A DNA stretch of 64,000 nucleotides from an uncultured Fibrobacterota bacterium. Its GTDB lineage: Bacteria > Fibrobacterota > Chitinivibrionia > Chitinivibrionales > FEN-1185. The stretch covers positions 256,001 through 320,000 of the forward strand of contig CAVWBU010000027.1 in assembly GCA_963753345.1 (NCBI GenBank), written 5' to 3'. The position numbers and the translations under genes were made by a program. Positions within the stretch are counted from its first letter, which is position 1. The number at the start of each line of letters is the position of its first letter. Under the pieces are notes generated by a model, which was given only the letters and a program-made list of their open reading frames with translations, searched no databases and was not told the origin of the DNA. Below are positions 4,428 to 24,856 of this stretch, piece after piece.

Positions 4428-4599
4428 TGTTCCGCCTTAAGCACTAGGATCAGGAAAAAGATAGTACTACGGATTGCCGAGCCCGTGCGGCGTGGGCGTG
4501 CCCGTGCAAGGCCGAACCTTCCGTTGCGCGCACGGTAGAAGCACCCGATTAATAAATTCTTGACGGAACATACCGACGATTGAGCCCACCTGCTGGCAT

Positions 4600-4986: not shown

Positions 4987-5276
4987 TACCGCCCCGAGAA
5001 ATCCTTCTTCGCCAGCGAATGCAGCTCATTGTTCCGTTTTTCGATCAGCGCTTTCTTTTTCGCGTGGCTCCAGCCCTGTACCTGCTTCTCACGATAAAAT
5101 GCTTCATCGATTCTCGAATATTCTTCGTTGTACACCAACTTTACAGGGTGCTTCTTTCTCGTGTAATTGGCGCCAAGAAAATTATTGTGTTCCCAAATTC
5201 GTCTTTCGAGATTCTTCGTGCTGCCGGTGTAAAATGTGCCATCGGCACATTGAAGAATGTACATCCACCCTTTCAT
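4986..5276 (-). CDS. Small GIY-YIG nuclease (UPF0213/YhbQ-like)
   Basis: MKGWMYILQCADGTFYTGSTKNLERRIWEHN...AFYREKQVQGWSHAKKKALI. Confidence 0.92.
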   Translation of the reverse strand: MKGWMYILQCADGTFYTGSTKNLERRIWEHNNFLGANYTRKKHPVKLVYNEEYSRIDEAFYREKQVQGWSHAKKKALIEKRNNELHSLAKKDFSGR

Positions 5277-5337
5277 ACCATTATCCTTCAAGCTGGATTA
5301 TTCAGGAATTACAGTTGCCGCCCGACGAGTGCCGCTC

Positions 5338-5444
5338 GCCTCGATACATTCCTCCGGAACACTCGGCGAGCGGTATTCGACGAACGAGCTACTTCCCCGC
5401 CGGTCATCGAGTAGACGCTTTAGCGTCGTATCGAGATGCCGGCA
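5338..5444. repeat. Diverged copy of the 111-bp repeat family
   Basis: ctcgatac...tcgacgaacg...cgccggtcatcgagtagacgctttagcgtcgtatcgagatgccggc. It overlaps the hsdS stop. Confidence 0.85.
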
Positions 5445-8195: not shown

Positions 8196-9532
8196 TATTT
8201 GTCCTTTTCTAATATCTGCCAACGGCCTTTTCTTGTTGCACCAATATGTTTTATTAGGCCTAATTTTGTAAGGTTCCTAAGATGATATTTCACGCCATCC
8301 GGCGTAATAGCCAATTTGTTTGCAAGTTCGTTTCTCGTTATGTGCGGGTCTACACTTATCAGGGAAAGAATTTTTTCTTGGGTAGTTTTCCCCTGTTCTT
8401 GGGTAGTTTCTTGGGTAGTCCGCTTAAACGTAACGGTGAAAAAGGAATCGAATTTAAAAACCGGCTCCGGATCTCCGGCGGCGGCAAGGGCGTTTTTTAT
8501 CCGGTTGATTCCGGTGCCCATTTTCTCGATATAGCCGGTGCGATGTAAAAGCGACGCGATCAACGGGTTTCGCGAAACGCTCAGCGTTCCGAATTTTTCC
8601 GGTGAAAGCCCTTTGGGAAGCCCGCCGGGATTGGAAATGTGTATCCGGTCGTCAAAAATTTCGACCATGATATTGGCGCCTTTTTCAAAATAATCCCGAT
8701 GACAGGCTGCATTAACAATCGCCTCGCGCAAGGCGACTTCGGGTATTTCGAGAATTTCCGCGCGCTGCATTGTCTTGATTTCGTACCGTAGGTTTAAATG
8801 TTTTTTCAAGAAAAGGATGGTATCTTCGATGTTGGAAATTAAATCGGCGGAGAAATCTTTTCTATCAAGAATTGTAATCTTTTCAATGCCTTTGTACAGC
8901 GCGCAGGTTATGGTCGCAAAAAATAGATGGGGCGGCAAGTTCCGGCAGAAAAAAAGGAGTCCTGCATTATTAAGATACAGCTTGTGGCGCCTATGAAGCA
9001 AAACCCCCAAATTTTCAAGGACAGCATGGTCGCCAAGGGTCTTCGTGATTTTTGCGGCGTTTACAAATCGAGTGAGAACCGAGGGATCCAAAACTTTGTT
9101 AAGGTCAACATTCTCGTCGACGATTTCATCAAACCGCACTTTGCCTTCGGATTGGATGAATTCAGTTATTTCCCGAGTGGACATCTTTTGTGAGTTCGCG
9201 CCGCTGCGCAAATAGAACCCTTTTGAACAACGATACGGTTTGTTCAAGCCTTCTTTAACCTGTATAATTAATATGTTTTCGAAATGGGTTATTTCGATTG
9301 GGACCGGAGGATCGCAATGGGTGGCCATGTCTTGTATTTGAGAGAGGATAGTATTGTTCTTTGCAATTCCGGTCTGTACATTGTGGTCATTGATGCCGAT
9401 AAATATTCTTCCGCCAATGGAATTTGCCATGGCGACAAGTTCTTTCGAAAGATCGGAATTCACATTTTCCTTAAATTCAAGGGTGAGGCCTTCGCCTTCC
9501 TCCAAAATGAGAGCCAATTCCTTCTTGTTCAT
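8195..9532 (-). CDS. AlbA_2/Schlafen domain + HATPase_c_4 + wHTH protein
   Basis: GEGLTLEFKE..AMANSIGGRIFIGIND; ALREAIVNAACHRDY; SNPGGLP; RNPLIA; EKMGTGI; C-terminal HTH. It is embedded in the hsd operon. Confidence 0.88.
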   Translation of the reverse strand: MNKKELALILEEGEGLTLEFKENVNSDLSKELVAMANSIGGRIFIGINDHNVQTGIAKNNTILSQIQDMATHCDPPVPIEITHFENILIIQVKEGLNKPYRCSKGFYLRSGANSQKMSTREITEFIQSEGKVRFDEIVDENVDLNKVLDPSVLTRFVNAAKITKTLGDHAVLENLGVLLHRRHKLYLNNAGLLFFCRNLPPHLFFATITCALYKGIEKITILDRKDFSADLISNIEDTILFLKKHLNLRYEIKTMQRAEILEIPEVALREAIVNAACHRDYFEKGANIMVEIFDDRIHISNPGGLPKGLSPEKFGTLSVSRNPLIASLLHRTGYIEKMGTGINRIKNALAAAGDPEPVFKFDSFFTVTFKRTTQETTQEQGKTTQEKILSLISVDPHITRNELANKLAITPDGVKYHLRNLTKLGLIKHIGATRKGRWQILEKDK

Positions 9533-12330
9533 TAAGCCGCCAACTTTCTTGTTAATTCGAGAATTTCGTTGATTTCGCGTGGAGTAAACAGGCCGCGAAT
9601 GCCTTCGGGATGCAACACCGTAAAAGGTGATTCTATCAAATCGCGTTTTTCCACCGTTTCTCTTTGCAGTATGAAATCCTTGAGCAGGTCCAGAAAATCC
9701 AATTGCCGTGAGCTGAGGTTCGTGTGGTCGTGGATGAATTGTTCAAACGCCTTGCTCACCGTGTCCGGAAAGCTTTCCAGTTTTTCGATGCCCAGGATAT
9801 GTTTGATAAATTGGATGAACTTTGCCTTCCGGTTCCTGTAAACAGTCTTGAGCAAGTCTTCGGTGATGTGCGGGTGTTCGTTGTTCAGCAGTTCCGCAAG
9901 CTCATGTATCTCTTTTTCGGACACTTGCCTGCCCTCTCTGATCTTCCGCAGTATCGGATTGCTTTCCGTCAATTCCTTGACAAGCTTCTCCACCATTTCC
10001 CGGTATTTGGAAACGCTCACCGCCGAATGTTCCGGCCCAAACTCCACTGTCTCCTTTGTTTTCACCAAATCGGCAAAATCGAACTTTGCGGGTCCAAGAG
10101 GCACGTCACCGCCATCCCGGTATTTCTGGAGCGGCGAGAGCTTTGCGCTAAGCTCGTCGAATGTCTCATCCGTTGCCGTGGCCCAAAAGTGATTTGTCTG
10201 GGCCGCCCTAATCGTTGTTTCTTCCCTGGCGACAATGTTCACCGACAGCGGCAACCCCCCCGCAATCTCAACGATATTGTCTTTGAGCGTCTCGAATTTG
10301 TTTTCTTCGCCCGCAAGCTTGGCCAGGGATGCTTCGAGCAAATCCTTTTCAAACCGCATGGCCTTGAAATCGGTCTGTGAAACGGTCCTGAAAAGCGGCT
10401 TGATGCTCGTGCGCATGAATTCGATCTTATCGTGGGTAAGCTTTGTCCAGAAGTTGTCGTCCTCAATCTTGCGCAGGTCCGTTGCCGCATCGTGAATGGT
10501 GACGGAGTTTTTCGGGAGTTCCGAAATCTGTTTGCGGAGCCGGGCAATTTCCTTTTTGGCAATGCCGTCGTTGTCCAAGTCAATTGCCTTTTCGATCTTG
10601 TCGAGCCGAATGCCCACAAACCGCACGGGAAGCGGAATTTGCGCGGCTGGCTCCTTGCCTCTGGGATTGAGCTTGAAATATTCGAAGTTGTCCCAGCAAT
10701 CCAGAATAAGGAACTTGTCTTTTGCAGGGCACCAGGGCTTTATCTTGTGCGGTTCCAGAAGGCGCGTGCCCCTGCCGATCATCTGCCAGAACTTCGTGTA
10801 GGAATACACCGGCTTGGCAAAGACCAGGTTGACTATTTCCCTTATATCAATTCCCGTGTCGAGCATGTCCACGCTCAAGGCTATGCGCGGCATGTCGTTC
10901 TTGGAAAACTGGTCCAGCAGCCCGCCTTTGCCGTACACGCGCGGATCGTCGGAAACAAGGACCTTGGCAAGCTCGCCGCGATACTCCGGGTACAGAGTGT
11001 CGAAGATCTGCTCAAGCCGTCGCGCATGCGACATGGAAGAACAGAAGAATATCGTTTTGCCCGGAAGAACCCCGTTTGAATCCTTGATGCACTCTTCCAT
11101 GTACTCTCTCACGATGAGAGCGTTTGTGCCTTTGTTGATGACCGTCTTTTCAATCTCCGTGCCCTCAAAATTGATTTCCTCAACGTCCTTGCCTTCGAGG
11201 ATCAATTTCTTCTGGTCTTCAAGGGAAATGGTCCGCTTGCTGATGCCTTCGGCCTGAAACTTTGTATGGATCTTGGTCACCACAAAGTTGCACAAATACG
11301 GCGGAACGTTGGCCACCGCTTCCTCGTAGGTATACGCAAACGTGGGTACGCCGTCGTCGCAGTTGAAAAGCTTGAACGTGTTATGGTCGATAACATCCGT
11401 TGGCGTGGCGGTAAGCCCGATGCTTATGGCCTTGAAATAATCGAGCACCTCTCCGTATGTATTGTAAATGGACCGGTGACTCTCGTCGATTACAACGAGA
11501 TCAAAGAAGTGGGGCGAAAGGTTGTTGCCTTCATCACGAATGATATTCAGCATCGTGGGATAGGTGGAAACGTAGATGCGCCTGTCCTTGGCGATTTCGA
11601 TGTCTCCCTGCCTGGGCCAACGCGGCTCGTTGGGCAGGTGCTCCTTGAAAGCATCCAATGCCTGTTCGCGCAACGCAATCCTGTCAACCAGGAAAAGCAC
11701 CCGCTCCACGTGGCCTGCGCGCATGAGCGCGTCGACAAGGGCAATGCACGTTCTGGTTTTGCCCGTTCCAGTGGCCATAACAAGCAGAAAATTTCGCTGT
11801 TTCTTTTCGATCCCTTCCATTACCGCGCGGATCGCGCGGATCTGGTAGTCTCTTCCGGCGATCTTCGTATTAATAAGCTCGTCGGCAAGCCGCTTCCTGT
11901 TTTCACGAATGTACTGAAACCGCTCCAGGTCGTCCCGCGTTGGGAACCCCACCACTTTTCGCGGCGGGTAATTGTCCAAATCCCAGAAGTGAATTTCAAG
12001 TCCGTTGGTGTAAAAACAAAACGGCAGGGCGCAGCCGTACTGCTTCTTAATGTTATGGCAATACTGCTTTGCCTGTTCCCTCCCTATCTCCGCGTCCTTT
12101 GAAGTCTTCTTGGCTTCCACAACCGCCAGCGGCTTTGCATCCCTGCCAAACAAAACATAGTCGCTGAACTGATGCCCCTCGTACGGCGTTCGCGGCTCGG
12201 AAACGCCATCGGGCAAAGGAACGGAAATATCGAATTCCTGGGAGACCTGGGTAAGGTTGTTTACGTCCCAGCCCGCGGCGAGGAGCTTTTTGTCGATGAG
12301 GTCTTTACGGGTTTGGGATTCGGATGTCAT
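9532..12330 (-). CDS. hsdR: Type I restriction endonuclease R subunit (EcoAI/EcoEI-like)
   Basis: SDYVL..VVEAKK nuclease motif, MATGTGKT Walker A, DESHRS, TAT, QMIGRGTR. Confidence 0.95.
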   Translation of the reverse strand: MTSESQTRKDLIDKKLLAAGWDVNNLTQVSQEFDISVPLPDGVSEPRTPYEGHQFSDYVLFGRDAKPLAVVEAKKTSKDAEIGREQAKQYCHNIKKQYGCALPFCFYTNGLEIHFWDLDNYPPRKVVGFPTRDDLERFQYIRENRKRLADELINTKIAGRDYQIRAIRAVMEGIEKKQRNFLLVMATGTGKTRTCIALVDALMRAGHVERVLFLVDRIALREQALDAFKEHLPNEPRWPRQGDIEIAKDRRIYVSTYPTMLNIIRDEGNNLSPHFFDLVVIDESHRSIYNTYGEVLDYFKAISIGLTATPTDVIDHNTFKLFNCDDGVPTFAYTYEEAVANVPPYLCNFVVTKIHTKFQAEGISKRTISLEDQKKLILEGKDVEEINFEGTEIEKTVINKGTNALIVREYMEECIKDSNGVLPGKTIFFCSSMSHARRLEQIFDTLYPEYRGELAKVLVSDDPRVYGKGGLLDQFSKNDMPRIALSVDMLDTGIDIREIVNLVFAKPVYSYTKFWQMIGRGTRLLEPHKIKPWCPAKDKFLILDCWDNFEYFKLNPRGKEPAAQIPLPVRFVGIRLDKIEKAIDLDNDGIAKKEIARLRKQISELPKNSVTIHDAATDLRKIEDDNFWTKLTHDKIEFMRTSIKPLFRTVSQTDFKAMRFEKDLLEASLAKLAGEENKFETLKDNIVEIAGGLPLSVNIVAREETTIRAAQTNHFWATATDETFDELSAKLSPLQKYRDGGDVPLGPAKFDFADLVKTKETVEFGPEHSAVSVSKYREMVEKLVKELTESNPILRKIREGRQVSEKEIHELAELLNNEHPHITEDLLKTVYRNRKAKFIQFIKHILGIEKLESFPDTVSKAFEQFIHDHTNLSSRQLDFLDLLKDFILQRETVEKRDLIESPFTVLHPEGIRGLFTPREINEILELTRKLAA

Positions 12331-12533: not shown

Positions 12534-12742
12534 GCGGAAATCTCCCTGAATATCCGGTAAAATTCATCGTCCAGCACCACGGTTTGCCCATCTTCGCTAT
12601 ATGCAACTTCCAACGGTCGACCCTCGTAAGCCGTTTCGGTCCTCTGCGGGAAAGCGAAGGAAACGCCGCATCCTTCAGAATCAAAATAGTATTTACCGTG
12701 AGGTCAAGGCGAGGGCGTGAGAGGTGAGGTCAATGGTCAGGA

Positions 12743-12804
12743 GCACTACCGAGGACGGCAGTGGCACACTATTGTGATTATTGATCACACGGGGCACCCG
12801 TGCG
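12743..12804. repeat. Conserved junction motif, copy 1 (hairpin without REP insert)
   Basis: gcactaccgaggacggcagtggcacactattgtgatt...gcacccgtgcg. Homologues lie at 20863-20993 and 23874-23984. Confidence 0.75.
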
Positions 12805-12852
12805 CCAAGATTCTATTAGTTTCCAACTTGGAAATAAATGAAACCGCTCAAA

Positions 12853-14613
12853 TCACTTTTTCAAAACATCCTCAAACGCATTATTGATCGCATCCATCCA
12901 TGTGGTTGGGACCTCACTAAGTGATGCCCACTGTGACACATGGTTGTACGCATGAAAAGGCTTGTCGTTGCCGGGCGGAGAGTATCCAAGAGCTTCTTCG
13001 AGACACTTGTTTAGTACAATCACATTCTTGGGTTCACCAACCGCATCGAAAATAGGTTTGTTAAACTTCTCTGCTCCAGCAACACCATAATCGCCGTCAT
13101 GAACTACAATCGGCTCAATACTCAACGCCCGCAGGTACTTCACAAGCGATATTATTGCTGCCTTCCCCCTTGCTTTTACTAATTGATACCGTGCAGCAAT
13201 CTGCTTTTGTACCGCGTCTGGCAGCAACTTGAGGGTTTGCCTAATTGCCAATACTTCAGAGTCGCCTTCAACTACTATAACCTTCTCCGCAAAGAAGACA
13301 CGCGACAGTTCATCGTCAAATGCCTGTACTATTTTTACCCGCGTCTTGTCCTCCGGAGGCAACTTGGCAAGCGCGGTGGAAACAACGTAATTGCATGCAA
13401 CGACATTATCGGAGTCTTGTATTGCCATCCTGGTAATACTCTGTGGGTTTCGACTCAAATCGATCATCCATGGTGAATGCGTGGTACAAATGATCTGGTC
13501 AGATTCCCCTAAAGCATAGATTGTATCTCTAAGCATATTTGCCGCAGACGGATGGAGAAAAAGTTCAGGTTCCTCGAAGGCAACAAGCACAGGCCGCGTT
13601 TGAAGTTCCTTTTGTATTTTTAACCGTGCGTGGTAGCGAAGCATAGCGAACGCACATGTCCGAATCAGACCAGTCCCCTGCCGAGACACACCGGTTCGAA
13701 TGTTGGAGAAGACTTTGATGTCGTATTTTGGGCGAAGAATCTCAAGCAAATCCTGCAAGGACGGTTCGATAGAAATGCCGCACTTTGGAAATACATCGGC
13801 AATAATAGTATTTATCTCGTTGACCAAACCATGGACAAGTGAGGCCTCATCAGCCGGATCCATTTGTTTTTCGAGTTGTTTAAGTCTACTTGTTATTTCA
13901 CCTGCTATCGGAGTTGTGCCGATTAAGTCCTCAAAAAGCAGTGACAGACACTCACCAAGAGCATATTTTTTCTCGTCTGATTCAATTTCTCGCGCCTCTG
14001 TTAGAGCGGGAATGTGAATTAACCGAGGCAGACGGGACAGAACGTTTTGCGGTATGCCACCTGGGTTCGGCATCCAAGCCGGTTGTGCAGCCGTGTCAAA
14101 GTCAAGTACGTCTGGAATAGACTTCTCCCAGTCCCTTCCCAATTTGGCGTCGACTTCGTTTATGCCCAGCCCGTCTTCTACGATATCCACTGGGATACCC
14201 CCGTCGAGCAAATCCTTCACCTTCTTTGCCTTTTGGAACGCTGGCTTTAAAGTTGAGGGATACTCTTGAGTCTCAATCTTCGGCTTGGTTGTATCAGTTG
14301 TGAGCGTCTTGCGGTAGACGAACCTGTTGTTAACAACCCGTCCTCGAAAGCCGCGACTTGCCGCCACATCAGTCGGAATGTTCCCGAAGTGCGCAGTGAT
14401 GATTGTTTGATCTGCGCGTGAGCCATCCTGCCGCTCTTGTATATCCTGTTGCGACAGTTTCTCTCTCTCAAGAGAAAGAAGGGCTTCTATCGCGGCAACG
14501 ATGGAGCTTTTTGAAGTATTGTTCGGCCCAACAATGAATGTGGAGGGTTCAAAGCAAACGGTTGCTTTCTTAATGCGGCGAAAGTTTTCCAAGTCAAGCT
14601 GCAATAATCTCAT
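12853..14613 (-). CDS. OLD-family ATP-dependent nuclease (ABC ATPase + TOPRIM)
   Basis: LENFRRI, VGPNNTSKSS Walker A-like, FEEPELFLHP, TTHSP, TOPRIM VVEGDSE and DGD. Confidence 0.9.
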   Translation of the reverse strand: MRLLQLDLENFRRIKKATVCFEPSTFIVGPNNTSKSSIVAAIEALLSLEREKLSQQDIQERQDGSRADQTIITAHFGNIPTDVAASRGFRGRVVNNRFVYRKTLTTDTTKPKIETQEYPSTLKPAFQKAKKVKDLLDGGIPVDIVEDGLGINEVDAKLGRDWEKSIPDVLDFDTAAQPAWMPNPGGIPQNVLSRLPRLIHIPALTEAREIESDEKKYALGECLSLLFEDLIGTTPIAGEITSRLKQLEKQMDPADEASLVHGLVNEINTIIADVFPKCGISIEPSLQDLLEILRPKYDIKVFSNIRTGVSRQGTGLIRTCAFAMLRYHARLKIQKELQTRPVLVAFEEPELFLHPSAANMLRDTIYALGESDQIICTTHSPWMIDLSRNPQSITRMAIQDSDNVVACNYVVSTALAKLPPEDKTRVKIVQAFDDELSRVFFAEKVIVVEGDSEVLAIRQTLKLLPDAVQKQIAARYQLVKARGKAAIISLVKYLRALSIEPIVVHDGDYGVAGAEKFNKPIFDAVGEPKNVIVLNKCLEEALGYSPPGNDKPFHAYNHVSQWASLSEVPTTWMDAINNAFEDVLKK

Positions 14614-14718
14614 TCATGTCTCCAGGTTAATAATCATCATTAAAAACGCGCGCTCTCGCTTAACATTCTTCCTAATCGCCAACACATTAATGACATTCCC
14701 GGCGGCAATCTATTCTGG

Positions 14719-15993
14719 TCATACCGTACTATTCTCGTCGTGGTCCAACTCAAGCAAGGTCAGCCCTTCAATTTCCTGCAGTGTCTTCCCAGCTATTCCC
14801 TGCAAATCCCCATACATTCCTACAGTTGCCTGCATGACGTGCTCTATTTGTTGTTGACGTTTTGCCCATTGTTTTGTAATCGCTTTTTTCTCTTTATCAA
14901 GGTCTTCCTGCATTGAGGTAAACGCTTCTATTATAGCCTGCACACGCTGACGAAAACGGGGACCTGTAAGGTACTGGTAAATCATCTCCGTTTTCGTCTG
15001 CTGACCTTCAGACACACGGCGAGCCGACGAGATTTCAAGTAACATATGTCGAAGTGCAAATGCAACGGGTATTGTTGCTGTTGGGTGCGAAACCCACACC
15101 CCTTCGACAAACCCAAAGGTTTCCACACTTTTCGGGAGAACTTGAGTGATAATAACAGCTATCTCGCCCTTTGCATTTCGCAGATCATCCCGCAACTTGG
15201 CAAGCCAGCCGTCGCTCCAATTCTTCGTTCTTTTTGATTCCCACAATATCGTGCCGCAAATTTGCCCGCTAGAATCATTCACTCGTTGCAACACATCTCC
15301 CCCGAATTCGCCCTTGGGTACCGGTTCTATTGTATCGCGTGGAAAGTTCGTTCTCAATAGCGCTTCAAGCTCAATTTCCTGAACTTCCCCTTGAAGTTGC
15401 TCGGAACCTTGTTCTGCCTTACGTTTGAGTTCTTCAATCTGTCTCTGCATTGACGAAATGGTCTGCTCCTTTTCCATCACTTTGAGCTTCATTTGCTCTT
15501 CAGTTTCTTTGCGAGCCTGTTCGCGTATTGCATCCAGTCCCTCCTGGACGCGCTTTTCAATATTCAAATTCATTTCTCTCTTCGCATCGTCAAGCTCGCG
15601 TTGTTTTCGGATTAACTCAGCTTGCGCTTCCTGGGCTTCGGAAAGCTTCTTGTCGCGCTGCAGAAGAACTTCTTGAAGTTCAGCAAGCTGTTTGTCTTTG
15701 CTCTCCAGGTCGTTGGAGAGAATCGTTCTTGCTTTCTTTAGTTCTTCCGCGGCTATTTTTGAGCGCTCTTGTTCTATTTTCTCTGTGACTTGTTGTTGAA
15801 TAGTCTCTTTTTCCCTGCCGATGGCTTCCTCGCGAGCCTTAAGTGCCTTTTCCTGAGCAGCAATATCCACGTCCTTCTTAGCAATCCGATCCTCATAATC
15901 ACGTTTAGTTGCCTCGATAAGTGGCGCAGCAAGAGATTCGGTAAGCCTTATTTCATTCTTGCATTTCGGACAGATTATGGTCGGTTCATTCAT
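14719..15993 (-). CDS. DUF2130 coiled-coil / PD-(D/E)xK-like protein
   Basis: N-terminal ICPKC, long coiled coil, GSEQLQGEVQE, GDVLQ..ILWESKRTKNWS. Confidence 0.88.
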   Translation of the reverse strand: MNEPTIICPKCKNEIRLTESLAAPLIEATKRDYEDRIAKKDVDIAAQEKALKAREEAIGREKETIQQQVTEKIEQERSKIAAEELKKARTILSNDLESKDKQLAELQEVLLQRDKKLSEAQEAQAELIRKQRELDDAKREMNLNIEKRVQEGLDAIREQARKETEEQMKLKVMEKEQTISSMQRQIEELKRKAEQGSEQLQGEVQEIELEALLRTNFPRDTIEPVPKGEFGGDVLQRVNDSSGQICGTILWESKRTKNWSDGWLAKLRDDLRNAKGEIAVIITQVLPKSVETFGFVEGVWVSHPTATIPVAFALRHMLLEISSARRVSEGQQTKTEMIYQYLTGPRFRQRVQAIIEAFTSMQEDLDKEKKAITKQWAKRQQQIEHVMQATVGMYGDLQGIAGKTLQEIEGLTLLELDHDENSTV

Positions 15994-16075
15994 TGCTTAC
16001 TCCCCACCAGGGCCAGATAAGTTGAATAGATTGCAAGTTCGTGAGCAGATGTTTTTTGTTCTTTGTCCCTAGGTT

Positions 16076-16369
16076 TCATACATGGCAATGAATAATCTTC
16101 ATTGCTTTATCATTTGGATTATAGAAAGGTCTGTCCTGAGCGAATATCTTCTCAGTAATCGAAAGCGAAGATATTTTTGATACATCAAAGAGTTTCCATT
16201 CAACAGGCCTGCCAGATTCACTATAACCCCCTGTTTGGTAACCGCGCAGGACTTCATTGCCAGCGGTACTAATCCCGTGGCAATGTGGTTCAACTGTACG
16301 CATTCCGCCGTCGTAATCAAACTGGATTATCGCTCTTTTAGCTATTGCATCGCAAATTAGTGCGTTCAT
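16076..16369 (-). CDS. Stand-alone WYL-domain protein
   Basis: AIAKRAIIQFDYDGGMRTVEPHCHG..LRGYQ..WKLFDVSKI fits the WYL pattern. There is no HTH, and an AGGAGG RBS is present. Confidence 0.75.
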   Translation of the reverse strand: MNALICDAIAKRAIIQFDYDGGMRTVEPHCHGISTAGNEVLRGYQTGGYSESGRPVEWKLFDVSKISSLSITEKIFAQDRPFYNPNDKAMKIIHCHV

Positions 16370-16467
16370 GATCCCTCCTTATGATAATGCCGGTAAGTAG
16401 TGGAGAATTCCTAACAAGACATGTTTCAAACAACTTGCTTGCACCCGGGGCACATTTATCGATAAAA

Positions 16468-16758
16468 TCATTTGCCGCACGTCTCACTGACATTTGCCGA
16501 CGCGAGTTTGGTGGCATCTCTAATTTGCAGGGTTTTGCCTGTTTCTCCATTATGCGCCTTGCACATCGGAACAATGTACCAACCACTGTCCGTGGTGCCT
16601 TCTTTCTGGACATGCGCTCCAACTTCTGGCTTCTCATAGCAGGTAAGTACTGTGCAATAAGGTGGTAATGATTGACCGCTGTAATTCTCCCAATGCTCAA
16701 GCCAGCTGCCGCATTTGCATGTGTTGTCACTGGTACCATTGATGTTCTTTACCTTCAT
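16468..16758 (-). CDS. Small Cys/His-rich protein, possible His-Me (HNH-like) fold
   Basis: CKC, CxxxxC, GAHV and YIVPMCKAHN motifs, with an AAGGAGG RBS. Confidence 0.6.
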   Translation of the reverse strand: MKVKNINGTSDNTCKCGSWLEHWENYSGQSLPPYCTVLTCYEKPEVGAHVQKEGTTDSGWYIVPMCKAHNGETGKTLQIRDATKLASANVSETCGK

Positions 16759-16863
16759 AAAGCCCTCCTTAGGATTGGTTAGACGATTAAATTGTGCCAC
16801 AAATACGATATCAATACAGCCCAGACATAAAAATCCGTGCCCAAGAATACCCAGATAGATAGT

Positions 16864-17235
16864 TCACCCCGCAATCCTCCCCATCTCCTCCTCAATAATC
16901 TTCCCCAGCACTTTCAGCGGCACCGGTTTTCCCAGCACGGTCACGTTGAGCGCCTTCATTTCCTTTTCCGCAATTTCCGGAACAAACCCTGAGAGCAACA
17001 CTTTCCTCACGTGGGCGGGCGCGGCCGCGGCGAGTTGCATGCCGTCAATATATGGCATCCTGTAGTCGGTTACAAGAAGATCGATGGGATTGTTCTGCAC
17101 GAAATCGCGCGCGGTTTGGGCATTGGTGAAGCTATGGACTTGCGCCTGGGGAGCTTCAAGGTTTATGAAGCTTGTCAGGATGTCTGTGATGAACTGTTCG
17201 TCGTCCACGACCACTACTTCGAGTTCGAGTTTCAT
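16864..17235 (-). CDS. Single-domain response regulator (receiver), copy A
   Basis: VVVVDDE, DLLVTDYRMP, LLSG, KP motifs. Confidence 0.9.
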   Translation of the reverse strand: MKLELEVVVVDDEQFITDILTSFINLEAPQAQVHSFTNAQTARDFVQNNPIDLLVTDYRMPYIDGMQLAAAAPAHVRKVLLSGFVPEIAEKEMKALNVTVLGKPVPLKVLGKIIEEEMGRIAG

Positions 17236-17304
17236 AATTCTCCTTGGAGGCGGCTGCCTTTGGCGCCGGAAGCGGACATGTTCATTATACTATAAAGGGG
17301 TTCT

Positions 17305-17333
17305 CAAGAACGGAACCTTATGTTCCGTTCTTG
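17305..17333. promoter_or_regulatory. Perfect 12-bp inverted repeat upstream of the receiver gene (also at 28799-28827 and 30425-30450)
   Basis: caagaacggaac-cttat-gttccgttcttg lies just upstream of a minus-strand TATAAT. Confidence 0.55.
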
Positions 17334-17389
17334 CATGTGCAGATAGCAAGAATCTGGGCGTTCCCCCGCTTCGCATGAAGACACAAGAC

Positions 17390-17561
17390 TTGGGCGCCCC
17401 GCCGAGTACGGCGGCGGCCCTCGCTCCGGTCCACCCCTTCGGGTGCTTCCAAGGGTCGTCGGCCTTCGGCCTCCGGCCGCCACGGCCCAATGCCGCGGCA
17501 GCGGCGGGTCCGGGCGTCACCGCGTTCCAACGCGGCCTCCGTTCCGGCCTGGCGCTGGGCA
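17390..17561. repeat. GC-rich MITE/REP-like dispersed repeat (other copies at 20547-20705, 28884-29055 and inverted 31602-31749)
   Basis: Copies share the ends ttgggcg... and ...gcctggcgctgggca / gcctaacgctgggca, plus internal hairpins. Confidence 0.75.
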
Positions 17562-18221
17562 TAGGACACTACCCAACGTCAATAGTCGCCTGCGCATATT
17601 TGGTTTGTCTTGGCCTTCCTGCCGCCATCAGTGGCGCAGCCGCGCACGGAGTTGTTGAGAACGAGTTGTTTTTGGTTTTTCTTATCGCCATCAGCGCCGC
17701 TCCATGGGACCGGCGGATTGGTCCGCTCGCGTCGTTCAAGGCCGGCATCTTTTGAGGATTGGAAAAATGTCCTGCCGGACGCGTTCGCGAGCGGCCTGCC
17801 GGCCACATGGGTATCGGCGGCGCTGCAGGCGCGGCATGGGGATGCAAGGGGTGCTTGCTGAAGAGCACCCCTTGCTCGGGGTTCGGGGCTGAAGGCCCCG
17901 ACCCGTTTGTACGCGGCCCGCAGGCCGCGGGACCGGGCGGAGCTGCAGGCGCGGCACGGGGGTCCAGGGGGCGCTTGCTGCAGACAAGGCAAACGACACA
18001 ATATCTGGCGCGGAGCGCCAACTACTTCTCCTTGGGGAACGGAAGTGACAACGCCCCTTGGTCGGGGTTCGGGGGCGACCCTCCGACCCCGTTCTACCGC
18101 AGCGCGAGGGTGCCGGGCGCCTCGGATTTATTGAGCCAGTCGAGAAGGGGCATTTGTCCTATTTATTCCTGCTGGTTTGCGAACCTGGATACTTGTTTCC
18201 CTTGCGAGGTCCGCGAAAGAT

Positions 18222-18662
18222 TTACAGATGCTTTACCGTAAGGCCGCTAAATTGCTTTTGCAGGTATTCGGCAGCCAATCGCCTGTGGCATTTGTCGGGC
18301 GTTGACTCGGAGCACAAGAGACATGACATATTAAGTTGTTCAATCGACATCGTTTTGTGTGGAGCCCTCAGGTTAATCAGCGCATTGTACTTCGTTTCGT
18401 ATTCGGCCCAGGAGATCAGCTTCTTATGATAGCCATCCAGCAGTTCTTTTGATGGCGCGAAATCCGGGATATGCCTGTATGAACAATGACAAACGACCTC
18501 AAGGAAAAACTGCAAGTCCTCCCTTTTTGAATATCCTGCAAGTTGAGAGGAGTTGTTAAGCCTTACGTCAATTAATTGAACAACACGATTTTGATTGAGG
18601 ATAGTGAAAAACGTGCGGGCAGGCTTCTTAGTAAACCCTATTGTGTACAGTACTGCTTCCAT
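18222..18662 (-). CDS. DUF488 family protein
   Basis: LYTIGFTKK, LIDVRL, LLCSE..CHRRL. Confidence 0.88.
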   Translation of the reverse strand: MEAVLYTIGFTKKPARTFFTILNQNRVVQLIDVRLNNSSQLAGYSKREDLQFFLEVVCHCSYRHIPDFAPSKELLDGYHKKLISWAEYETKYNALINLRAPHKTMSIEQLNMSCLLCSESTPDKCHRRLAAEYLQKQFSGLTVKHL

Positions 18663-19266
18663 TGCTTGCTTCCTCGGGATTAGAGAATGATTCATCTACA
18701 TAAGCGATGGAATCGCCTTGAATGCGATACGCCTCCTCAACAAGCTGGGCGTGAGTCCTAAGAAGATCTGGTCCGTCAAGGTGAACCATTGAGAGAAGAC
18801 GTTCTTCAATATGGTCTTGAGGTTCGATATCTCCATCGCACAGTATGTGTTCTATTTCCTTAACATCATTCCGCAAGTTCTTGCAAATCAGAATGGTCCT
18901 ATGGCACATTATAGGGTCTTTCTCGGCGCACATCAGAGCGATGTTATGATTTAAAAGGCCATCCACAATGCGCTTGAGACCTTTTCTGAAGAGCGGGTGT
19001 CTGGAAATAAGAGCATAATCGGCCTTACCATCGATGTAGCATTCAGGTGCACTAATCCTCGCTCCACATTCATTACCGAGGAAAACATAGTAGATTCCGT
19101 TATCGCGCAGAAATGCTTTTATGGTTTCACGATTGTAGTCGGGCTTAAATTTGCTGAATGGTTGTGAGCGGACATCCGCAACAGCTGAAATACCGTATTG
19201 TCTAATCGCATGCAAGAAATCTGCATTGGTGAAGCAGGAATAGCCAATTGTGAAGAGCTTGTGCAT
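18628..19266 (-). CDS. DUF488 family protein
   Basis: LFTIGYS, VADVRSQP, ALMCAEKDPIMCHR. Confidence 0.88.
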   Translation of the reverse strand: MHKLFTIGYSCFTNADFLHAIRQYGISAVADVRSQPFSKFKPDYNRETIKAFLRDNGIYYVFLGNECGARISAPECYIDGKADYALISRHPLFRKGLKRIVDGLLNHNIALMCAEKDPIMCHRTILICKNLRNDVKEIEHILCDGDIEPQDHIEERLLSMVHLDGPDLLRTHAQLVEEAYRIQGDSIAYVDESFSNPEEASNGSSTVHNRVY

Positions 19267-19275
19267 GCTTGCGGT

Positions 19276-19977
19276 CTATTTCTCTATGATTGTGGCTGCC
19301 AACTTATAGTGATACCCGTTGAAGGGCTTCGTCAAACTGATGCAGAGCAAACAACCCTTTGACTTTAGAAGTACCTTTCGCGCCGGACTACCCGGTCCTG
19401 GAAACGGCTTGAAGTACTTGATGTCAATATCCGGGTCAGTAATGGCAAGATCAAAATCCGACCCGCCATAGGAAAATAGTGCACGCCGTCGTTTCTGGTC
19501 ATGGCCTTCAAATTCGTTGTAAATTGTTGATATTTGCATGCGAAAATTCGCAGGTTCCACGATGCAAAGAGATGACTTTGATTTTTGTGAAAGGAAGAAG
19601 GTTGATGAAACCCTATCGGACATCCTACGCGGTTCAATCCAAAGATTCTGAGGATGTTCAGTAAGAACAGCTAGTGATTCTTTTCGCAAAGTCCCGATTC
19701 TTTCCCAGCGGCCGGGCGAAATCAGCCAGTTCTCCGGCTGGGTTTCGGACGGGGCAGGTTCAATGCAGGGAAGTTTGACGATGTCCAATATGCCGGGAGT
19801 GTTACCGTTTGAATATGAAATGTCATGAAGTGACAGAGCGCCATCATCATGTTGTGAGACCGGTCTTATCCAGACCCCAGCCACAAGACGGCCCGTTTTC
19901 CGGATAATTTCCTTTCCTGCCACGCAGTATTGTCCGTGCTTGACAGACCTTGCAAGAATCACTATTTCCTTTTGCAT
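19276..19977 (-). CDS. Dual OB-domain-like protein
   Basis: LARSVKHGQYCVAG, WIRPVS, QPENW, RALFSY..LAITDP, ISL..YKLAATII. It lies adjacent to the DUF488 genes. Confidence 0.7.
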   Translation of the reverse strand: MQKEIVILARSVKHGQYCVAGKEIIRKTGRLVAGVWIRPVSQHDDGALSLHDISYSNGNTPGILDIVKLPCIEPAPSETQPENWLISPGRWERIGTLRKESLAVLTEHPQNLWIEPRRMSDRVSSTFFLSQKSKSSLCIVEPANFRMQISTIYNEFEGHDQKRRRALFSYGGSDFDLAITDPDIDIKYFKPFPGPGSPARKVLLKSKGCLLCISLTKPFNGYHYKLAATIIEK

Positions 19978-20097
19978 TTAGCCACCCGCCACGACAGAAG
20001 ATAATGGCGCCTCAGAGAAAAATGCATAATGCAGCTGTCAAAAGCACGATTTTGGTGCAAGGTTTCTACATCCAGTTGCCGCTACAGAACATGTAAT

Positions 20098-20322
20098 GTC
20101 TTTCGCCTCGGTTTTTCCGCGCGGGGCTCGTCCACCTGCTCGATAACCTGGAACGGCAATACAATGTTCGTAACTTCGTTGGTCTTGCCGTTCCACACAA
20201 GCTCGACCTCGCGCTTGTCTTCGAACAACAGGAAACGGTACTTGTCCGGAAGCGGCTTGTCCGCTTCGATGCGGCGGCTTTGAGGGCTTCGGATTTATTG
20301 TGAGCCAGTCGAGAAGGGGCAT
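20098..20322 (-). pseudogene. Fused 5' remnants of type III-like DNA methyltransferase (mod) genes
   Basis: MPLLDWL(frameshift)NKSEALKAA is followed by IEADKPLPDKYRFLLFEDKREVELVWNGKTNEVTNIVLPFQVIEQVDEPRAEKP. Both recall N-termini of site-specific DNA methyltransferases, and no catalytic domain follows. Confidence 0.6.
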
Positions 20323-20862
20323 TTGTGAAGAGGTCTCCTATTGCGGCTTCAGAAAGGTGCGACTTTGAACGATCAATCTTAAAATAGGATTTGAGAAGGG
20401 GGGTGGCGTGGGATTTCGGAGAACCAGAGTCGAATGCCGTGGGAATAATGATGCGATAACTAAATAAATCAAATTCAATTTTGGATTGCTGAGCCGGTGC
20501 GGCGCGGATGTACCCGTGGCAAGACCAGCAACAAGATAAGAAAGAATTGGGCGTTCCCCTCCCCCTCGACTTCGCTCGGGGTCGGGTCGGCCGTCCTTAC
20601 GGTCTCGGCTTCGCCTCGGGCTGCCTGCCACATAGGCCCTGCGGGCCGTGGTCAGGCAGCACCGTGCTCCAGCACGGCCTCCAGTCCTGCCTAACGCTGG
20701 GCAGAGGGACATTACCCATCTGTCAATAACTGCTGCGCAAATACAAATGAGGAAATGTCTTTAGCAATCCACATTCCGCATTCCGCAATCTACAATTCTT
20801 CCCATCTCCCCCGCGATCAGTTCCGCCTGCTTCATCCTTGATTGTGCGCCGACGGTAAAGAA

Positions 20863-20993
20863 TACTGTTGAGGCCTGCACTGAGCCCTTCGACAGCGCTT
20901 CGTCAAGCTCAGCACGAGGCTCAGGACAAGCTTCGTCGAAGTGACGACAGTGGCACACGGTTGGGATTCTCGGTGATGCAACTCACCCGTGCG
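20863..20993. repeat. Junction motif copy with REP insert (20873-20942)
   Basis: actgttgag[gcctgcactgagc...gtcgaagt]gacgacagtggcacac...cacccgtgcg. Confidence 0.7.
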
Positions 20994-20997
20994 GATG

Positions 20998-23730
20998 CTA
21001 GTGTGCATACTGGTTCAGGATGGATTTGAGTCTATGATCCTCACCGGATTCGTTCGTTTTGAATCTATAGAGCGGAATTCCACACAGCGCAAACGCTTTG
21101 TTTTTGATCGTGTCCCGTACCGATTGTTCGATATTTTGCTCGTGATGCCTTATCCCATCCACTTCAAGAGCAAATAATGGTTTCCTGCTTGTGCTGTTAT
21201 AAAACAAAAAGTCCACATGCGTCCACGGATGGGTTATGTACTGCTTTTCCCTCTGATCCAGTCCTGTTAAATCGGTGATGAGTTTCCCCACTCTCGCATG
21301 CATTGTAAATGAAATGTATGGATAGTTCTTAAGCATGGCCGATATGAGTTGGTTCATCAGGAGCTCGGTAAAGTGTTCCCGGCTTTTTTTCCGATATTGC
21401 GCAATCAATTCATCCCTGTGTTCACCATAGAGCTTATCGAATATCGATGTGATTACCGATTCCCTCGTTACCGAATGGCCATACAGATACTCGATGTAAT
21501 CGATAAGGTCTTTTATGGTGTTGTTTGATGAATGATAAACCTTGTCCGATACGACAATGGTGACCTTTTTGATTCCCCTCGATATTGCCACATTCAAAAG
21601 TTCTTTATTGGTTATGAAATCATACAATCGGTTCTCAGTTGCAATATCACTTTTGTCCAATGAGTTAACCACAAACGACAAAACGACTTCTTCCTTCTGC
21701 CGGCCCTGATATTTATGGACGGTGTCGGCTTCGATTCCAGTCTCTTTGAATTTTTTACGAATCATGTCCGCCTGACATCTGAACGGCGTTATCACACCGG
21801 TGTCTTTTAATGGGGCGCCCTGCAACAAAACGCCTATTTCATCAATCTCCCGCTCATTGTATTGACCCCTGCCATTGGGGTTTCTTCTTGCATGATTGCC
21901 TGGAACGGTTTTGATGACGTTTAAATGTATACCATCGTTTTTCGTCATGACAATCAATTCATTATCGTAGAACATTTTATTGCAGAAACCTATGATGTCG
22001 GGAGCACAGCGATAATGTTCTTTGAGCAAAGTCGTCGGTACGTGGGGAATCGCGGTTTTCACGGACCTAAGGATGGAATTGGATTCATACCGGAAGCAGA
22101 AGTCTATACCGAATTTTTTCGACAACTCCCTCGAATGTGGAACCAAACTTTCGTCTTCGATTTCCTGGAGTTGTTTTGAGTCACCGACGACCACAAGGTT
22201 TCTTGCGCAACTGATGGCCAAAATACTGCTCAGCAGGTCACCCTGGGACGCTTCATCGATGATCAGATAGTCGAGCAGAAGTCTTTGCCCGACATTGTTA
22301 AGCAACGAATGCGACGTACTTAAAATGACAGGATAGCGCTTTACAAAGTGAGCGAAATCCGTTTTGTAGTTTTTAGGAGTGAATGATGCCGTATCTTCGT
22401 TCTTATATCGCTGATACAGCAAACCGGAAAAAACCCGGAGGGACAGATTTTGAAGTTCTTCCTTGAGCTCGGCACCTTTGTTCTTGACAATATATTTTTG
22501 ATGTTCTTTAATCAGGTTCCTAATCTCACGCCTTTTCGCAACATAGAACAATCTTTCCGCCGCATCCAGAAGTTTCCCATTGGCTTCCCTCCTGACCCGG
22601 GTTTTGAATTTTCTTTTTATCAGGTAACGTGCAAACACTCCGAGCGGCTTGCCCGATTCGAGTTTGATTTTCAACTTCAGATATTCTTCCGACGCAAGAT
22701 CGGGTTTTATTTGACAACCTTCCGTCATGCCGGCCCTGAGATGTTCCAATTCTTTTTCGAGCTCGGCCAGCTCAACCCTCTTTTTTGCCACCACGTTCTC
22801 GGCTTCATGCACTTGTTTTAAAATGCTTCCGAGTTTGTCGATTCTCGCGCCGATGGTTTCCGGGAGGGGTTTGAAATCGCCGTCAAGGAAGGCGGTCAGT
22901 TCACTCTCGCCCGCCGACGAGAAAAAAGCGTCAACGCGTTCTTTGCTGCCTAACAACGCAACGAAGAACGCGTGCTTTTCCTCGTTGAGTTTGTCATACA
23001 CATTTTGGATCGCAGCGTTATTGTTCGATACAACGGCGCACGTATATCCGTTTGCCACGATATTGGCGATCAGGTTCAATATCGTCTGTGTTTTTCCCGT
23101 TCCGGGTGGGCCTTCGATGACGGATATGTTATTGCCCAATGCATTTTCGATTGCCGCTCTTTGACTTTGATTGAAACTGAACGGGAGTATGATAGAACAC
23201 TGCTTCCCGATGTCCCGGCAACGTCCCTTGAAGTAGTCAAAAAGACACGAATTCTCGCTAAAGGAAATTCTCTTGAAGTTTTTCGAAAGATAATGCAGCG
23301 GAGATTTTTCTTCCGCTATTTCCAATCCCTTTTCCGCGAGCGCGGTATAATATTGCCGGATCTTTCTGTATCTATCGCTTTCGAACCGGACCTGATCGGT
23401 CAGGAAGTCTTTATCTCCGATATATACGCGATAGTATCCTTTTTCAAATTCGTCAACCCGGACCGCATCTACGACTTTATGGTCGACAAGGACCTCAATA
23501 TTTTCAAGCGGGACCGTTCTCAGGCAGTCGAGGACATTAACGCGATCTTGCGTGTAAAAATACTTTTGCTTGCCCCCTCTGAAGTATATGGCATAACCTG
23601 TAAATCTGCCATGCGAAAAGGCCTCATACATTGCCGATATTTGCTTTGTTTTGTCTTCCCATGCACCCGTCTCACATTTACAGAGAAGAATTCTCCTCTT
23701 TTGCGGGTCGATATTGACTCTTTCAGACAA
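20998..23730 (-). CDS. SF1 (Upf1/DNA2-like, AAA_11/AAA_12) helicase with C-terminal DUF2726-like nuclease domain
   Basis: GPPGTGKT, IIDEASQ, VGDSKQL, EHYRC, DTVHKYQGRQ, NVAISRG, C-terminal HVDFL..LEVDG..H..RDTIKN. Confidence 0.88.
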   Translation of the reverse strand: MSERVNIDPQKRRILLCKCETGAWEDKTKQISAMYEAFSHGRFTGYAIYFRGGKQKYFYTQDRVNVLDCLRTVPLENIEVLVDHKVVDAVRVDEFEKGYYRVYIGDKDFLTDQVRFESDRYRKIRQYYTALAEKGLEIAEEKSPLHYLSKNFKRISFSENSCLFDYFKGRCRDIGKQCSIILPFSFNQSQRAAIENALGNNISVIEGPPGTGKTQTILNLIANIVANGYTCAVVSNNNAAIQNVYDKLNEEKHAFFVALLGSKERVDAFFSSAGESELTAFLDGDFKPLPETIGARIDKLGSILKQVHEAENVVAKKRVELAELEKELEHLRAGMTEGCQIKPDLASEEYLKLKIKLESGKPLGVFARYLIKRKFKTRVRREANGKLLDAAERLFYVAKRREIRNLIKEHQKYIVKNKGAELKEELQNLSLRVFSGLLYQRYKNEDTASFTPKNYKTDFAHFVKRYPVILSTSHSLLNNVGQRLLLDYLIIDEASQGDLLSSILAISCARNLVVVGDSKQLQEIEDESLVPHSRELSKKFGIDFCFRYESNSILRSVKTAIPHVPTTLLKEHYRCAPDIIGFCNKMFYDNELIVMTKNDGIHLNVIKTVPGNHARRNPNGRGQYNEREIDEIGVLLQGAPLKDTGVITPFRCQADMIRKKFKETGIEADTVHKYQGRQKEEVVLSFVVNSLDKSDIATENRLYDFITNKELLNVAISRGIKKVTIVVSDKVYHSSNNTIKDLIDYIEYLYGHSVTRESVITSIFDKLYGEHRDELIAQYRKKSREHFTELLMNQLISAMLKNYPYISFTMHARVGKLITDLTGLDQREKQYITHPWTHVDFLFYNSTSRKPLFALEVDGIRHHEQNIEQSVRDTIKNKAFALCGIPLYRFKTNESGEDHRLKSILNQYAH

Positions 23731-23873
23731 AGATGTATCTCCTCAAAGATCAATAGGCCCAATTTTATTCAGTTTCCATGCAACCGCCCTCCGTGTCCGT
23801 CTATAATCTCGCCATCTGACGCAATGCACAACGGAGTCTTGAAGGCTGCCTGGGCGACAACAAACGGGAAGGG

Positions 23874-23984
23874 GCACTGCCGAGGCCTGCACTGAGCAGC
23901 GCGCTGCACTGAGCTTCGCCGAAGGGTCGAAGTGATGGCAGTGGCAATCGATTGTGATTCATTATAACACGAGGCACCCGTGCG
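23874..23984. repeat. Junction motif copy with REP insert (23885-23933)
   Basis: gcactgccgag[gcctgcactgagc...gtcgaagt]gatggcagtggca...gcacccgtgcg. Confidence 0.75.
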
Positions 23985-23998
23985 ACAAAATCTGGTAG

Positions 23999-24856
23999 CT
24001 ACGCTAACCGCACATTGCCGCCGAACAATTTCTTTGGATCAAAGCCCGGACCCGTTAATTTCTGTCTTGTTGCCATCATGTCATATAGGGGAAACAGATA
24101 GACCAAGTTCTGTTTCATTTCTTCAACGATGTTCTCGACACTGATTCTTGGGTCATCCTGCTCATATAATTTTCTAATTCCGGAATACCCTTCGGTGTGA
24201 CTCTTCTTTATGAACTGAAATAGATCCTTCTTGTCAATTCCGGTATCTAACGGAAAATTCTCATCGTTCACCACGTAATTGAATCCTTGACCAAGAAGCG
24301 GCTGGAGCCTCGTCCAATAACTGTCTCCAAAGTTGGGGTTTTTTCTCAAATTCTTTAAAAACTCCGACTTATCATATCTGTTCTTATCGGTAAAAATGAG
24401 GTAAGCCCCAAAGTCGGCGTTGCTTATGTAGAACTGGATCCTGGTATGAACGTAAAAGGCGTTGTAGTAATCTGCGTCATCTCTTTGACTGAATTGGTAT
24501 ACGCCGGGCAAATCTCTGTAGAAGTTGAGTTGCTCTTTGCTCTTTCCATAATGGAGCCACAACCATCCGATTTGCTTGACAATAGGTTGCCAGCGCCCGA
24601 CGGGTCCTTCTTTGTCGTCGGTTTCTCCGGTATCAACTCTTATCCAAATGAAATGGGTTGAGGAGGTGTAATGCTGTTTTTGATGGTGCCGGTGAAGGTC
24701 CCACCCTTGGGATTCAATAAACTTGAACAGCGGAGCATCTAGCCACAGGAATTCATCGCGGACTCTTTCTCTTTCCAAGCGTATTTGAGGAGTGTCATTC
24801 TCGTCCTTAGGCGGAGTAAAAGCATCGTAGTGTTTTTTGGTAAAGAGTTGAGACAT
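23999..24856 (-). CDS. Hypothetical protein (285 aa)
   Basis: Long AT-rich ORF with an AAGGAG RBS and no recognised motif. Confidence 0.75.
   Translation of the reverse strand: MSQLFTKKHYDAFTPPKDENDTPQIRLERERVRDEFLWLDAPLFKFIESQGWDLHRHHQKQHYTSSTHFIWIRVDTGETDDKEGPVGRWQPIVKQIGWLWLHYGKSKEQLNFYRDLPGVYQFSQRDDADYYNAFYVHTRIQFYISNADFGAYLIFTDKNRYDKSEFLKNLRKNPNFGDSYWTRLQPLLGQGFNYVVNDENFPLDTGIDKKDLFQFIKKSHTEGYSGIRKLYEQDDPRISVENIVEEMKQNLVYLFPLYDMMATRQKLTGPGFDPKKLFGGNVRLA

Follow-up and report, generated by a model that had tools for sequence, protein, structure and literature searches.

The window analysed here, 64 kb on contig C27 of the assembly of an uncultured Chitinivibrionales (Fibrobacterota) soil bacterium (G000; 4.5 Mb, 55 contigs, 94% complete), carries three copies of a short hairpin motif, and we found that this motif is one arm of a larger element. 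It probably belongs to a new, low-copy, lineage-specific and non-coding palindromic repeat of Chitinivibrionales, comparable to the miniature inverted-repeat transposable elements (MITEs) and to the REPINs built from repetitive extragenic palindromic (REP) sequences, which would be recognised as DNA and would accumulate in accessory islands. The three copies of the window are solo arms in direct orientation, marking a repeat-rich and fast-rearranging island rather than a series of cassettes. Throughout the text, the side of a unit that bears the terminal 13-mer is called its outer end, and the hairpin side its inner side. The copies (c1, c2 and c3) and the genes beside them are as follows:

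12730..12812, + strand: c1, solo arm (74.7 bits; in the training set of the covariance model)
20863..20993, + strand: c2, arm with a loop insert of ~72 nt at 20871-20942 (28.8 bits, E = 8.7e-9; not in the training set)
20790..20862, − strand: probable decayed inverted partner arm of c2, read by eye and undetected by the model
23874..23984, + strand: c3, arm with a loop insert of ~52 nt (22.5 bits, E = 2.6e-6; not in the training set)
12853..14613, − strand: Old-family nuclease (AAA_15 and OLD-like TOPRIM; PADLOC Old 9.3e-66), ending by c1
20998..23730, − strand: superfamily 1 helicase (AAA_11/AAA_12 and DUF2726), MkoC/MkoA-like, ending by c2
23999..24856, − strand: 285-aa gene with no Pfam or PADLOC family, ending by c3
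9532..12330, − strand: HsdR (type I restriction), beyond the hairpin of c1

The motif was present at 12743-12804, 20863-20993 and 23874-23984, in all three cases on the + strand, and each copy ran from an 8-bp hairpin through GGCA(C/A) and a T-rich stretch with TTG(T/G)GATT to CACCCGTGCG. Since the adjoining genes are all on the minus strand, the CACCCGTGCG ends sit beyond three stop codons (at 12853, 20998 and 23999), from which they are separated by 48 nt for Old, 4 nt for the helicase and 14 nt for the 285-aa gene; this agrees with the preliminary description, which had placed one motif in one orientation 5-50 bp after three stops. Exact CACCCGTGCG occurred three times in the window and was confined to the three motif sites, and GGCAGTGGCA, allowing up to one mismatch, gave 9 matches against 3.5 expected, a number reached in 0 of 100 shuffles. 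The stems are CACTACCG/CGGCAGTG at 12745 in c1, TACTGTTG/CGACAGTG at 20863/20943 in c2 and CACTGCCG/TGGCAGTG at 23876/23937 in c3. As a correction to the preliminary description, the loop is 4 nt long in c1 but measures ~72 and ~52 nt in c2 and c3; folded singly, these two were no better than shuffles (z −0.45 and −1.0). On the other hand, the compensatory change reported in the stem of the copy at 20863 is real, one pair of c2 passing from C-G to T-A, with two more pairs being G-T wobbles.

The order of c1 is GGTCAGGAG, the hairpin CACTACCG-AGGA-CGGCAGTG, GCACAC, an AT-rich spacer and the terminal GGGCACCCGTGCG (12792-12804). The loop insert of c2 contains GCACTGAGC-type sub-repeats and its terminal sequence is CTCACCCGTGCG; a metagenome contig (run X5) has this copy with 11 nt in place of 50 loop nt. 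In c3, which resembles a long-loop copy found in G002:C5, the terminal sequence is AGGCACCCGTGCG (23972-23984). No inverted partner end above chance was found within the window for these copies. A decayed partner hairpin may lie left of c2, where the remnant CTGCTTCATCCTTGATTGTG is of the GTGTGCCAC-GATCA-TCCT-TGATC-GTG type, and this partner arm is the weak part of the description, since the covariance model misses it.

The training set of the covariance model comprised c1 plus 14 copies located elsewhere in the assembly, on other contigs, without c2 and c3, and in a 119-kb search the model recovered both of these with the E values listed above. By profile and covariance-model searches of the whole G000 assembly (E ≤ 0.01, unless otherwise stated), we counted 28 copies, or 34 at E ≤ 0.1, on 11 of the 55 contigs. 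The three sites by which the motif had been tied to defence genes are real, but they are a sample of this genome-wide family, and the shared orientation of the three window copies has little weight alone. Over 15 copies, 5 of the 8 stem pairs changed on both sides, with stem types such as TGTCG/CGACA, GATCA/TGATC, GGTCC/GGACC and others; 79% of the cells were paired, compared to 25-53% with a slid partner, and the covariation score was reached in 0 of 500 shuffles. The hairpin was the only conserved helix detected by RNAalifold on either strand.

Matches to the model were also found in 20 of 41 relatives (E ≤ 0.01) and, at E ≤ 1e-6, in 18 of 151 genomes sampled across Fibrobacterota; 16 of the 17 matching genomes besides G000 belong to the same order, and none of the 55 genomes of the largest other family in this survey matched. 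The scan of genome and relatives proposed in the preliminary description thus yielded a dispersed family, with ~5-22 copies per matching genome, and with no copies in one 99%-complete genome of the same genus. In Rfam no family matched at gathering score, and a permissive search around c1 and the copy on C49 gave matches at chance level. Viral contigs returned 0 matches to the element pattern, and a pattern scan of public genome contigs returned 7 loci, 3 in Chitinivibrionales/Fibrobacterota and 4 in unrelated taxa, the number of chance matches being roughly estimated at ~7. A full-text search of the literature gave no paper joining Fibrobacterota with repetitive extragenic elements. As a separate observation, the genome G029 has tandem repeats with periods of 109 and 328 nt (L036 2829-3187 and L037 3253-3940), each with the hairpin CACGGTCG-GGGA-CGACCGTG followed by CCACACA; their 35 model matches were excluded from the family, as only the hairpin and GTGCCACAC are in common.

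From outside to inside, an arm consists of the 13-nt terminal inverted repeat CGCACGGGTGCCC, an AT-rich spacer of ~25-35 nt, GTGTGCCAC and the 8-bp hairpin, whose stem varies in sequence with its pairing kept, and whose loop is mostly RGGR and tolerates inserts of 50-100 nt, in which GCACTGAGC-type sub-repeats recur across several copies. Outside the stem, two sequence words are kept: GTGGCACAC, which adjoins the hairpin at its 3' foot, and, at the far end, (A)CAGG(G/C)CACCCGT(G/C)CG. In complete elements, from 150 to 371 nt, another end is present in inverted form, and a second hairpin may accompany it or be lacking; terminal inverted repeats were found at L071 (150 nt), at L038 (371 nt) and at C49:13467-14929. 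The 371-nt element, in G002:C5, shows perfect inverted ends of 13-14 nt and a hairpin arm at each end, with ~220 nt between them. The pair at C49:13467-14929 (L003 5468-6930; 1463 bp, perfect inverted 13-mers) is the sole kb-scale end pair in G000 and contains one unit, a degenerate inner end and the gene of a PDC-S01-type AAA_14/DUF4143 ATPase. Moreover, the copy at C49:13459-13620, together with ~75 nt past its hairpin, is 93% identical to a G002 site with both flanks unrelated; the common block starts with CGCACGGGTGCCC, and the G002 version closes with inverted GGGCACCCGTGC. In a tally of close pairs in G000 and relatives, ~10 of 11 were inverted with the terminal repeats outward, three of the doublets being in G000; singlets outnumber doublets, and single arms are commoner than complete elements. 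The inverted complete forms and the inverted close pairs define the element as a palindromic repeat with 13-mer, spacer, GTGTGCCAC and hairpin on each side.

All of the 24 copies examined in G000 sit between long open reading frames (ORFs). Among their neighbours are genes for housekeeping proteins (aldo-keto reductase, geranylgeranyl-reductase-like, HMGL-like, TPR and SpoIIE proteins), and the rRNA operon is followed by four or five copies. A genome-wide scatter irrespective of gene boundaries had been named beforehand as the result that would speak against a cassette boundary; with copies on 11 contigs, beside housekeeping genes and after the rRNA operon this is largely what we observed, but all copies are intergenic. 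Clusters of copies coincide with accessory DNA: the window itself, a defence island with type I HsdR, Old, three PDC-M45 genes, the Mko-like helicase and PDC-M49A; contig C34, with an HNH protein and a 1058-aa protein of no assigned function; and arrays in the relative G022, whose genes are GIY-YIG, HicAB, ParE/RelB and an orphan Rhs-CT-like module. We suggest that hairpin, flanking conserved word and terminal repeat would be recognised as DNA by an enzyme acting in trans, apparently not encoded in G000, and that the element would insert into intergenic DNA, mostly just past gene ends; its copies would build up in islands of accessory and defence genes and behind the rRNA operon, and decay there into solo arms.

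Several results weigh against such a repeat. For a REP or MITE family the copies are few, and no autonomous element or transposase bearing these ends was found in G000. No clean empty site emerged from five orthologous comparisons, each confounded by other repeats or rearrangement, and no direct repeat that could be a target-site duplication flanks the three complete elements. The copies are strongly clustered, 15 of 24 loci in G000 having a neighbour within 12 kb against 2.6 expected (reached in 0 of 5000 simulations), and the direct-oriented arrays round single accessory genes suit a recombination site equally well. Finally, among 21 informative cases in G000, judged by an ORF heuristic, the outer end was next to a stop in 16 and next to a start in 5, and in the loci of other genomes the split was 15 to 10 of 25, an excess that a purely neutral repeat does not predict. 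Stop-facing copies in G000 are often 0-70 nt from the stop; nevertheless, stop-side placement is a preference rather than a rule.

This placement is also what would be expected if the unit acted as RNA at gene 3' ends, as a terminator, insulator or mRNA stabiliser, with the terminal repeat first and the hairpin last, and owed its spread to a benefit behind strongly expressed or foreign genes. We consider this unlikely. The doublets between convergent genes fit it, as do the copy of G005:C60, in which a GC-rich stem is followed by TTTTT, and the CTCTTTAC found after the stem in many copies; however, only 6 of 48 copies have at least 5 T in the 8 nt after the stem, unlike an intrinsic terminator with its T-run directly after the stem, and a terminator scan flagged none of the three window copies. 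Canonical terminators with hairpin and T-run do exist in G000, after 5S genes. The orientation in co-directional gene pairs of G000 was 7 to 3 in our tally, which is not uniform, and the terminal repeat and the GTGTGCCAC word would be without a role. Moreover, the + reading of the stems gave 22 wobbles and the reverse reading 19 (G-U versus A-C), so that neither strand is favoured as RNA, and the shared RNA element suggested in the preliminary description is accordingly not favoured either.

Three other functional readings of the unit were discarded. TGGCAC within GTGGCACAC recalls a sigma-54 promoter, but its spacing to any TTG(C) shifts by up to 4 nt among copies. A sigma-70 promoter was rejected as a family feature, a good minus-strand match being present in c3 only; this strong site of c3 (window 23961-23988, minus strand: TTGTCG, 16 nt, TATAAT with a preceding TG) points to the helicase, whose start is 144 nt from c3. 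A coding role was rejected, as the small frames that a ribosome-binding site within the loop might serve (AGGA-N5-GTG GCA CAC) end after 5-12 unrelated codons. GGA loops of the CsrA type were noted as a further possibility, for which the wobbles without strand bias speak against an RNA role.

The direct arrays are at the centre of another explanation, in which the units are sites of gene capture or island shuffling, similar to attC or dif but of different sequence, on which Xer-like tyrosine recombinases would act in trans; the insertion of accessory genes at the outer end of a resident unit would generate direct-oriented arrays. Arrays of this kind occur in the window (Old; PDC-M45; helicase; 285-aa gene), on C34 (HNH protein, 1058-aa protein, RibD_C) and in G022:C133 (GIY-YIG, 338-aa protein) and G022:C77 (HicAB, 102-aa ORF), and modules of 5S, promoter, ORF and unit are repeated after the rRNA operon in G000 and G005. 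The strong clustering would follow as well, and the variable loop length is reminiscent of the variable terminal structure of attC. The array of G022:C77 starts 1.1 kb from two tandem Xer-like recombinases, and in G016:C106 a doublet has a recombinase fragment at a distance of 1.7 kb. One such adjacency among many arrays may nonetheless be due to chance, and no tyrosine recombinase is found on the contig of the window or near units in G000, G002, G004 and G005, although G000 has 8 matches to PF00589. The two recombinases of G022:C77 score 122.5 and 80.7 bits, compared to an integron-integrase cut-off of 265. In addition, gene orientation relative to the unit differs among arrays, and singletons and inverted doublets stand beside housekeeping genes.

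In the same locus (L035, G022:C77:38000-50000), positions 745-8552 encode a family-less 547-aa protein and the two Xer-like recombinases; behind these come an orphan Rhs-core-like fragment and a small ORF downstream of it, and then units interleaved with HicAB, the 102-aa ORF and ParE/RelB.

A comparison with integrons can be made in detail. The attC site is an imperfect palindrome with R''-L''/L'-R' boxes and the cores RYYYAAC and GTTRRRY. Like attC sites in cassette arrays, the units are structured sites 3' of unrelated accessory genes, in the same orientation, arrayed and with a variable loop, and toxin-antitoxin modules are among the enclosed genes. Unlike attC, the family has a single 8-bp stem with no R/L boxes, no second box, no RYYYAAC/GTTRRRY cores at either foot and no IntI; the unit does not move with the gene, and it is also found singly and as inverted doublets beside core genes.

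That the unit does not travel with the gene was observed for the helicase, which is 92% identical over 20995-23764 to a gene of G005 without a unit on either side; a unit was present in 0 of 67 metagenome loci that encode relatives of this helicase, among them some with 77%, 79% and 91% identity, the locus at 91% being probably the G005 organism again. Furthermore, in the assembled contigs of four DNA runs we found no joint removing gene and unit together, although contigs cannot reveal rare circles. The neighbourhood of c1 gave a different kind of information. In G002:C29, which is 92% identical to the HsdR region, an orthologous copy of c1 stands upstream of that region with its relative orientation unchanged; Peptidase_M78 and DUF4411 are extra between HsdR and this unit, and a different gene stands past its outer end, indicating that the DNA beyond the outer end is the variable part. 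Conservation between c1 and G002 is good inward from GTGTGCCAC and poor outward, as would be expected from a crossover at the foot of the hairpin. More generally, homology among the genomes compared stops at or inside the element, and at two loci the homology to G002 consists of element-sized blocks of ~120-150 nt. At one site occupied in G000, the element and neighbouring repeats are absent in G002 and G004, and for two further copies the flanking DNA matched nothing in four congeneric genomes.

The cassette boundary proposed in the preliminary description therefore keeps its clusters, its direct arrays and the Xer-like pair of G022, but the dispersal of the family, the lack of cores and the helicase without a unit stand against it; an attC-like role is not supported, and we hold a recombination site of any kind to be improbable. 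A more specific version of it, an undescribed platform distant from integrases, in which Xer-like enzymes in trans would capture defence genes, toxin-antitoxin pairs, orphan toxin-immunity modules and 5S-linked promoter-ORF cassettes, and the 5S-like end would be the original 5S attachment site, seems to us very unlikely. To our knowledge no gene-capture route has been described in Fibrobacterota; a hairpin site arraying single defence genes without an integron integrase would be a new one.

For the MITE/REPIN-like repeat, the candidate enzyme was looked for among several groups, and neither a recombinase nor an HUH gene, the linkage suggested beforehand, was found linked to units in G000. No Y1_Tnp (HUH) is present in this genome. 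Its one Y2_Tnp (IS91-type), on C26, has no unit within 3 kb and was set aside as a linked mobiliser. Among the 41 relatives, Y1_Tnp occurs in 30 genomes without tracking the units; two units adjoin broken Y1 genes, and no Y1 gene with units on both flanks was seen in the relatives. The ends of IS200/IS605 and of IS91/ISCR have a subterminal hairpin used by a Y1 or Y2 HUH transposase encoded nearby; the units do carry a hairpin, and no HUH gene was seen near them in G000, where such an enzyme may act in trans or have been lost.

Among known repeats, REP sequences and bacterial interspersed mosaic elements (BIMEs) and the REPINs are found in Enterobacteria and Pseudomonas, REP doublets being moved by RAYT, a Y1 HUH transposase. 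The family resembles them in being made of short intergenic hairpin repeats with inverted doublets and compensatory stems, without target duplication, placed after gene ends and between convergent genes. It differs from them in its ~24 loci per genome rather than hundreds, in its variable and sometimes long loops, in the 13-nt terminal repeat located ~45 nt from the hairpin and, with respect to the REPIN-RAYT system, in the lack of a Y1 gene in G000 and of a unit-flanked one in the relatives. With the bacterial MITEs (Correia/NEMIS of Neisseria, ERIC, RUP) it shares a non-coding sequence of 150-370 nt, terminal inverted repeats, intergenic spread, a presence that differs among related genomes, and decayed and half copies. 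Terminal repeats of 13-14 nt are present on the 150- and 371-nt elements, the window copies having one end. Unlike MITEs, the three complete elements show no target-site duplication, and G000 has no detected parent insertion sequence with the same ends, its sole kb-scale pair enclosing an ATPase and not a transposase.

A relation with 5S rRNA was also considered, in which the units would be relics of 5S rRNA or of a 5S-targeting element, with terminal repeat and hairpin deriving from 5S positions ~37-95. The terminal 13-mer (window 12792-12804) matches 5S positions 82-94 at 11 of 13 positions, the c1 hairpin matches positions 37-53 at 14 of 16, and the right end of the kb-scale pair (C49:14905-14929; L003 6905-6930) matches 5S at 21 of 26; each pairwise match was above all or nearly all of 300 shuffles, and by our own count the 57-nt span between the two matches is equal in c1 and in the 5S gene. 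These pairwise matches are, however, post hoc among 20 comparisons, five 5S genes searched with a profile of 48 copies gave no match at a threshold as loose as E ≤ 1000, and the Rfam 5S model does not match the units. After the rRNA operon the order is 5S, a terminator, a promoter-like TTGACA-17-TATATT, a small secreted-looking ORF, the unit, 5S again, and so on; at ~10800-13810 of L002 (G000:C41:258000-276000) there are one full extra 5S, one truncated copy and diverged fragments. Truncated 5S copies adjoin the outer end of the units, with its terminal repeat, three or four times on C41, and the layout is repeated in G005 (L073, G005:C60, 498-1500). Yet units beside 5S genes lie antisense to them, and most stems are unlike helix III of 5S. 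We regard the 5S link as a lead, and a descent of the units from 5S as highly improbable. A full-text search on MITEs with 5S rRNA in bacteria, its results judged by title and abstract, gave nothing relevant. In G004 (L075, G004:C8), a second, partial 5S lies 2.2 kb downstream of the 5S gene, with no unit detected beside it.

Other features were recorded in and around the loci. In L001 (G000:C52), a separate palindromic repeat (GAGTTCAAAGTTGAAAGTTGCAAG ... inverted) at 4510-4602 follows directly the stop of the aldo-keto reductase gene; it has many matches in relatives, and the convergent gene pair flanking it is only ~25 nt apart in G002. At ~7339-7363 of the same locus the DUF4954 and geranylgeranyl-reductase-like genes are adjacent, while in G002, G004 and G005 they are on different contigs, and this point marks where the DNA was rearranged, between two units separated by 4 kb. 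A composite transposon at C52:24617-28742 was rejected, as the enclosed genes are housekeeping genes at separate loci in relatives. Within the window, a cobalamin riboswitch at 3297-3483 on the minus strand (80.6 bits) is the sole Rfam match of the whole 64 kb. The Schlafen/AlbA_2-HATPase_c_4-HTH gene (8195-9532; window 8190-9531) represents a precise 1.34-kb presence/absence difference: G002:C29 joins 8189 to 9531, the gene being absent, and a contig of run X6 has the same joint. Finally, other high-copy repeat families at ~17354-18093 and 20527-20740 have dozens of matches in four genomes of the genus and account for the family-less ORFs in that stretch.

The genomes of uncultured Chitinivibrionales are very rich in repeats, and if the motif is indeed an arm of a MITE/REPIN-like repeat, it would add a further family to them, a finding unsurprising in kind. 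It would, at the same time, provide with its covariance model and terminal 13-mer a compact marker of accessory and defence islands, which would aid their annotation and the tracing of rearrangement.

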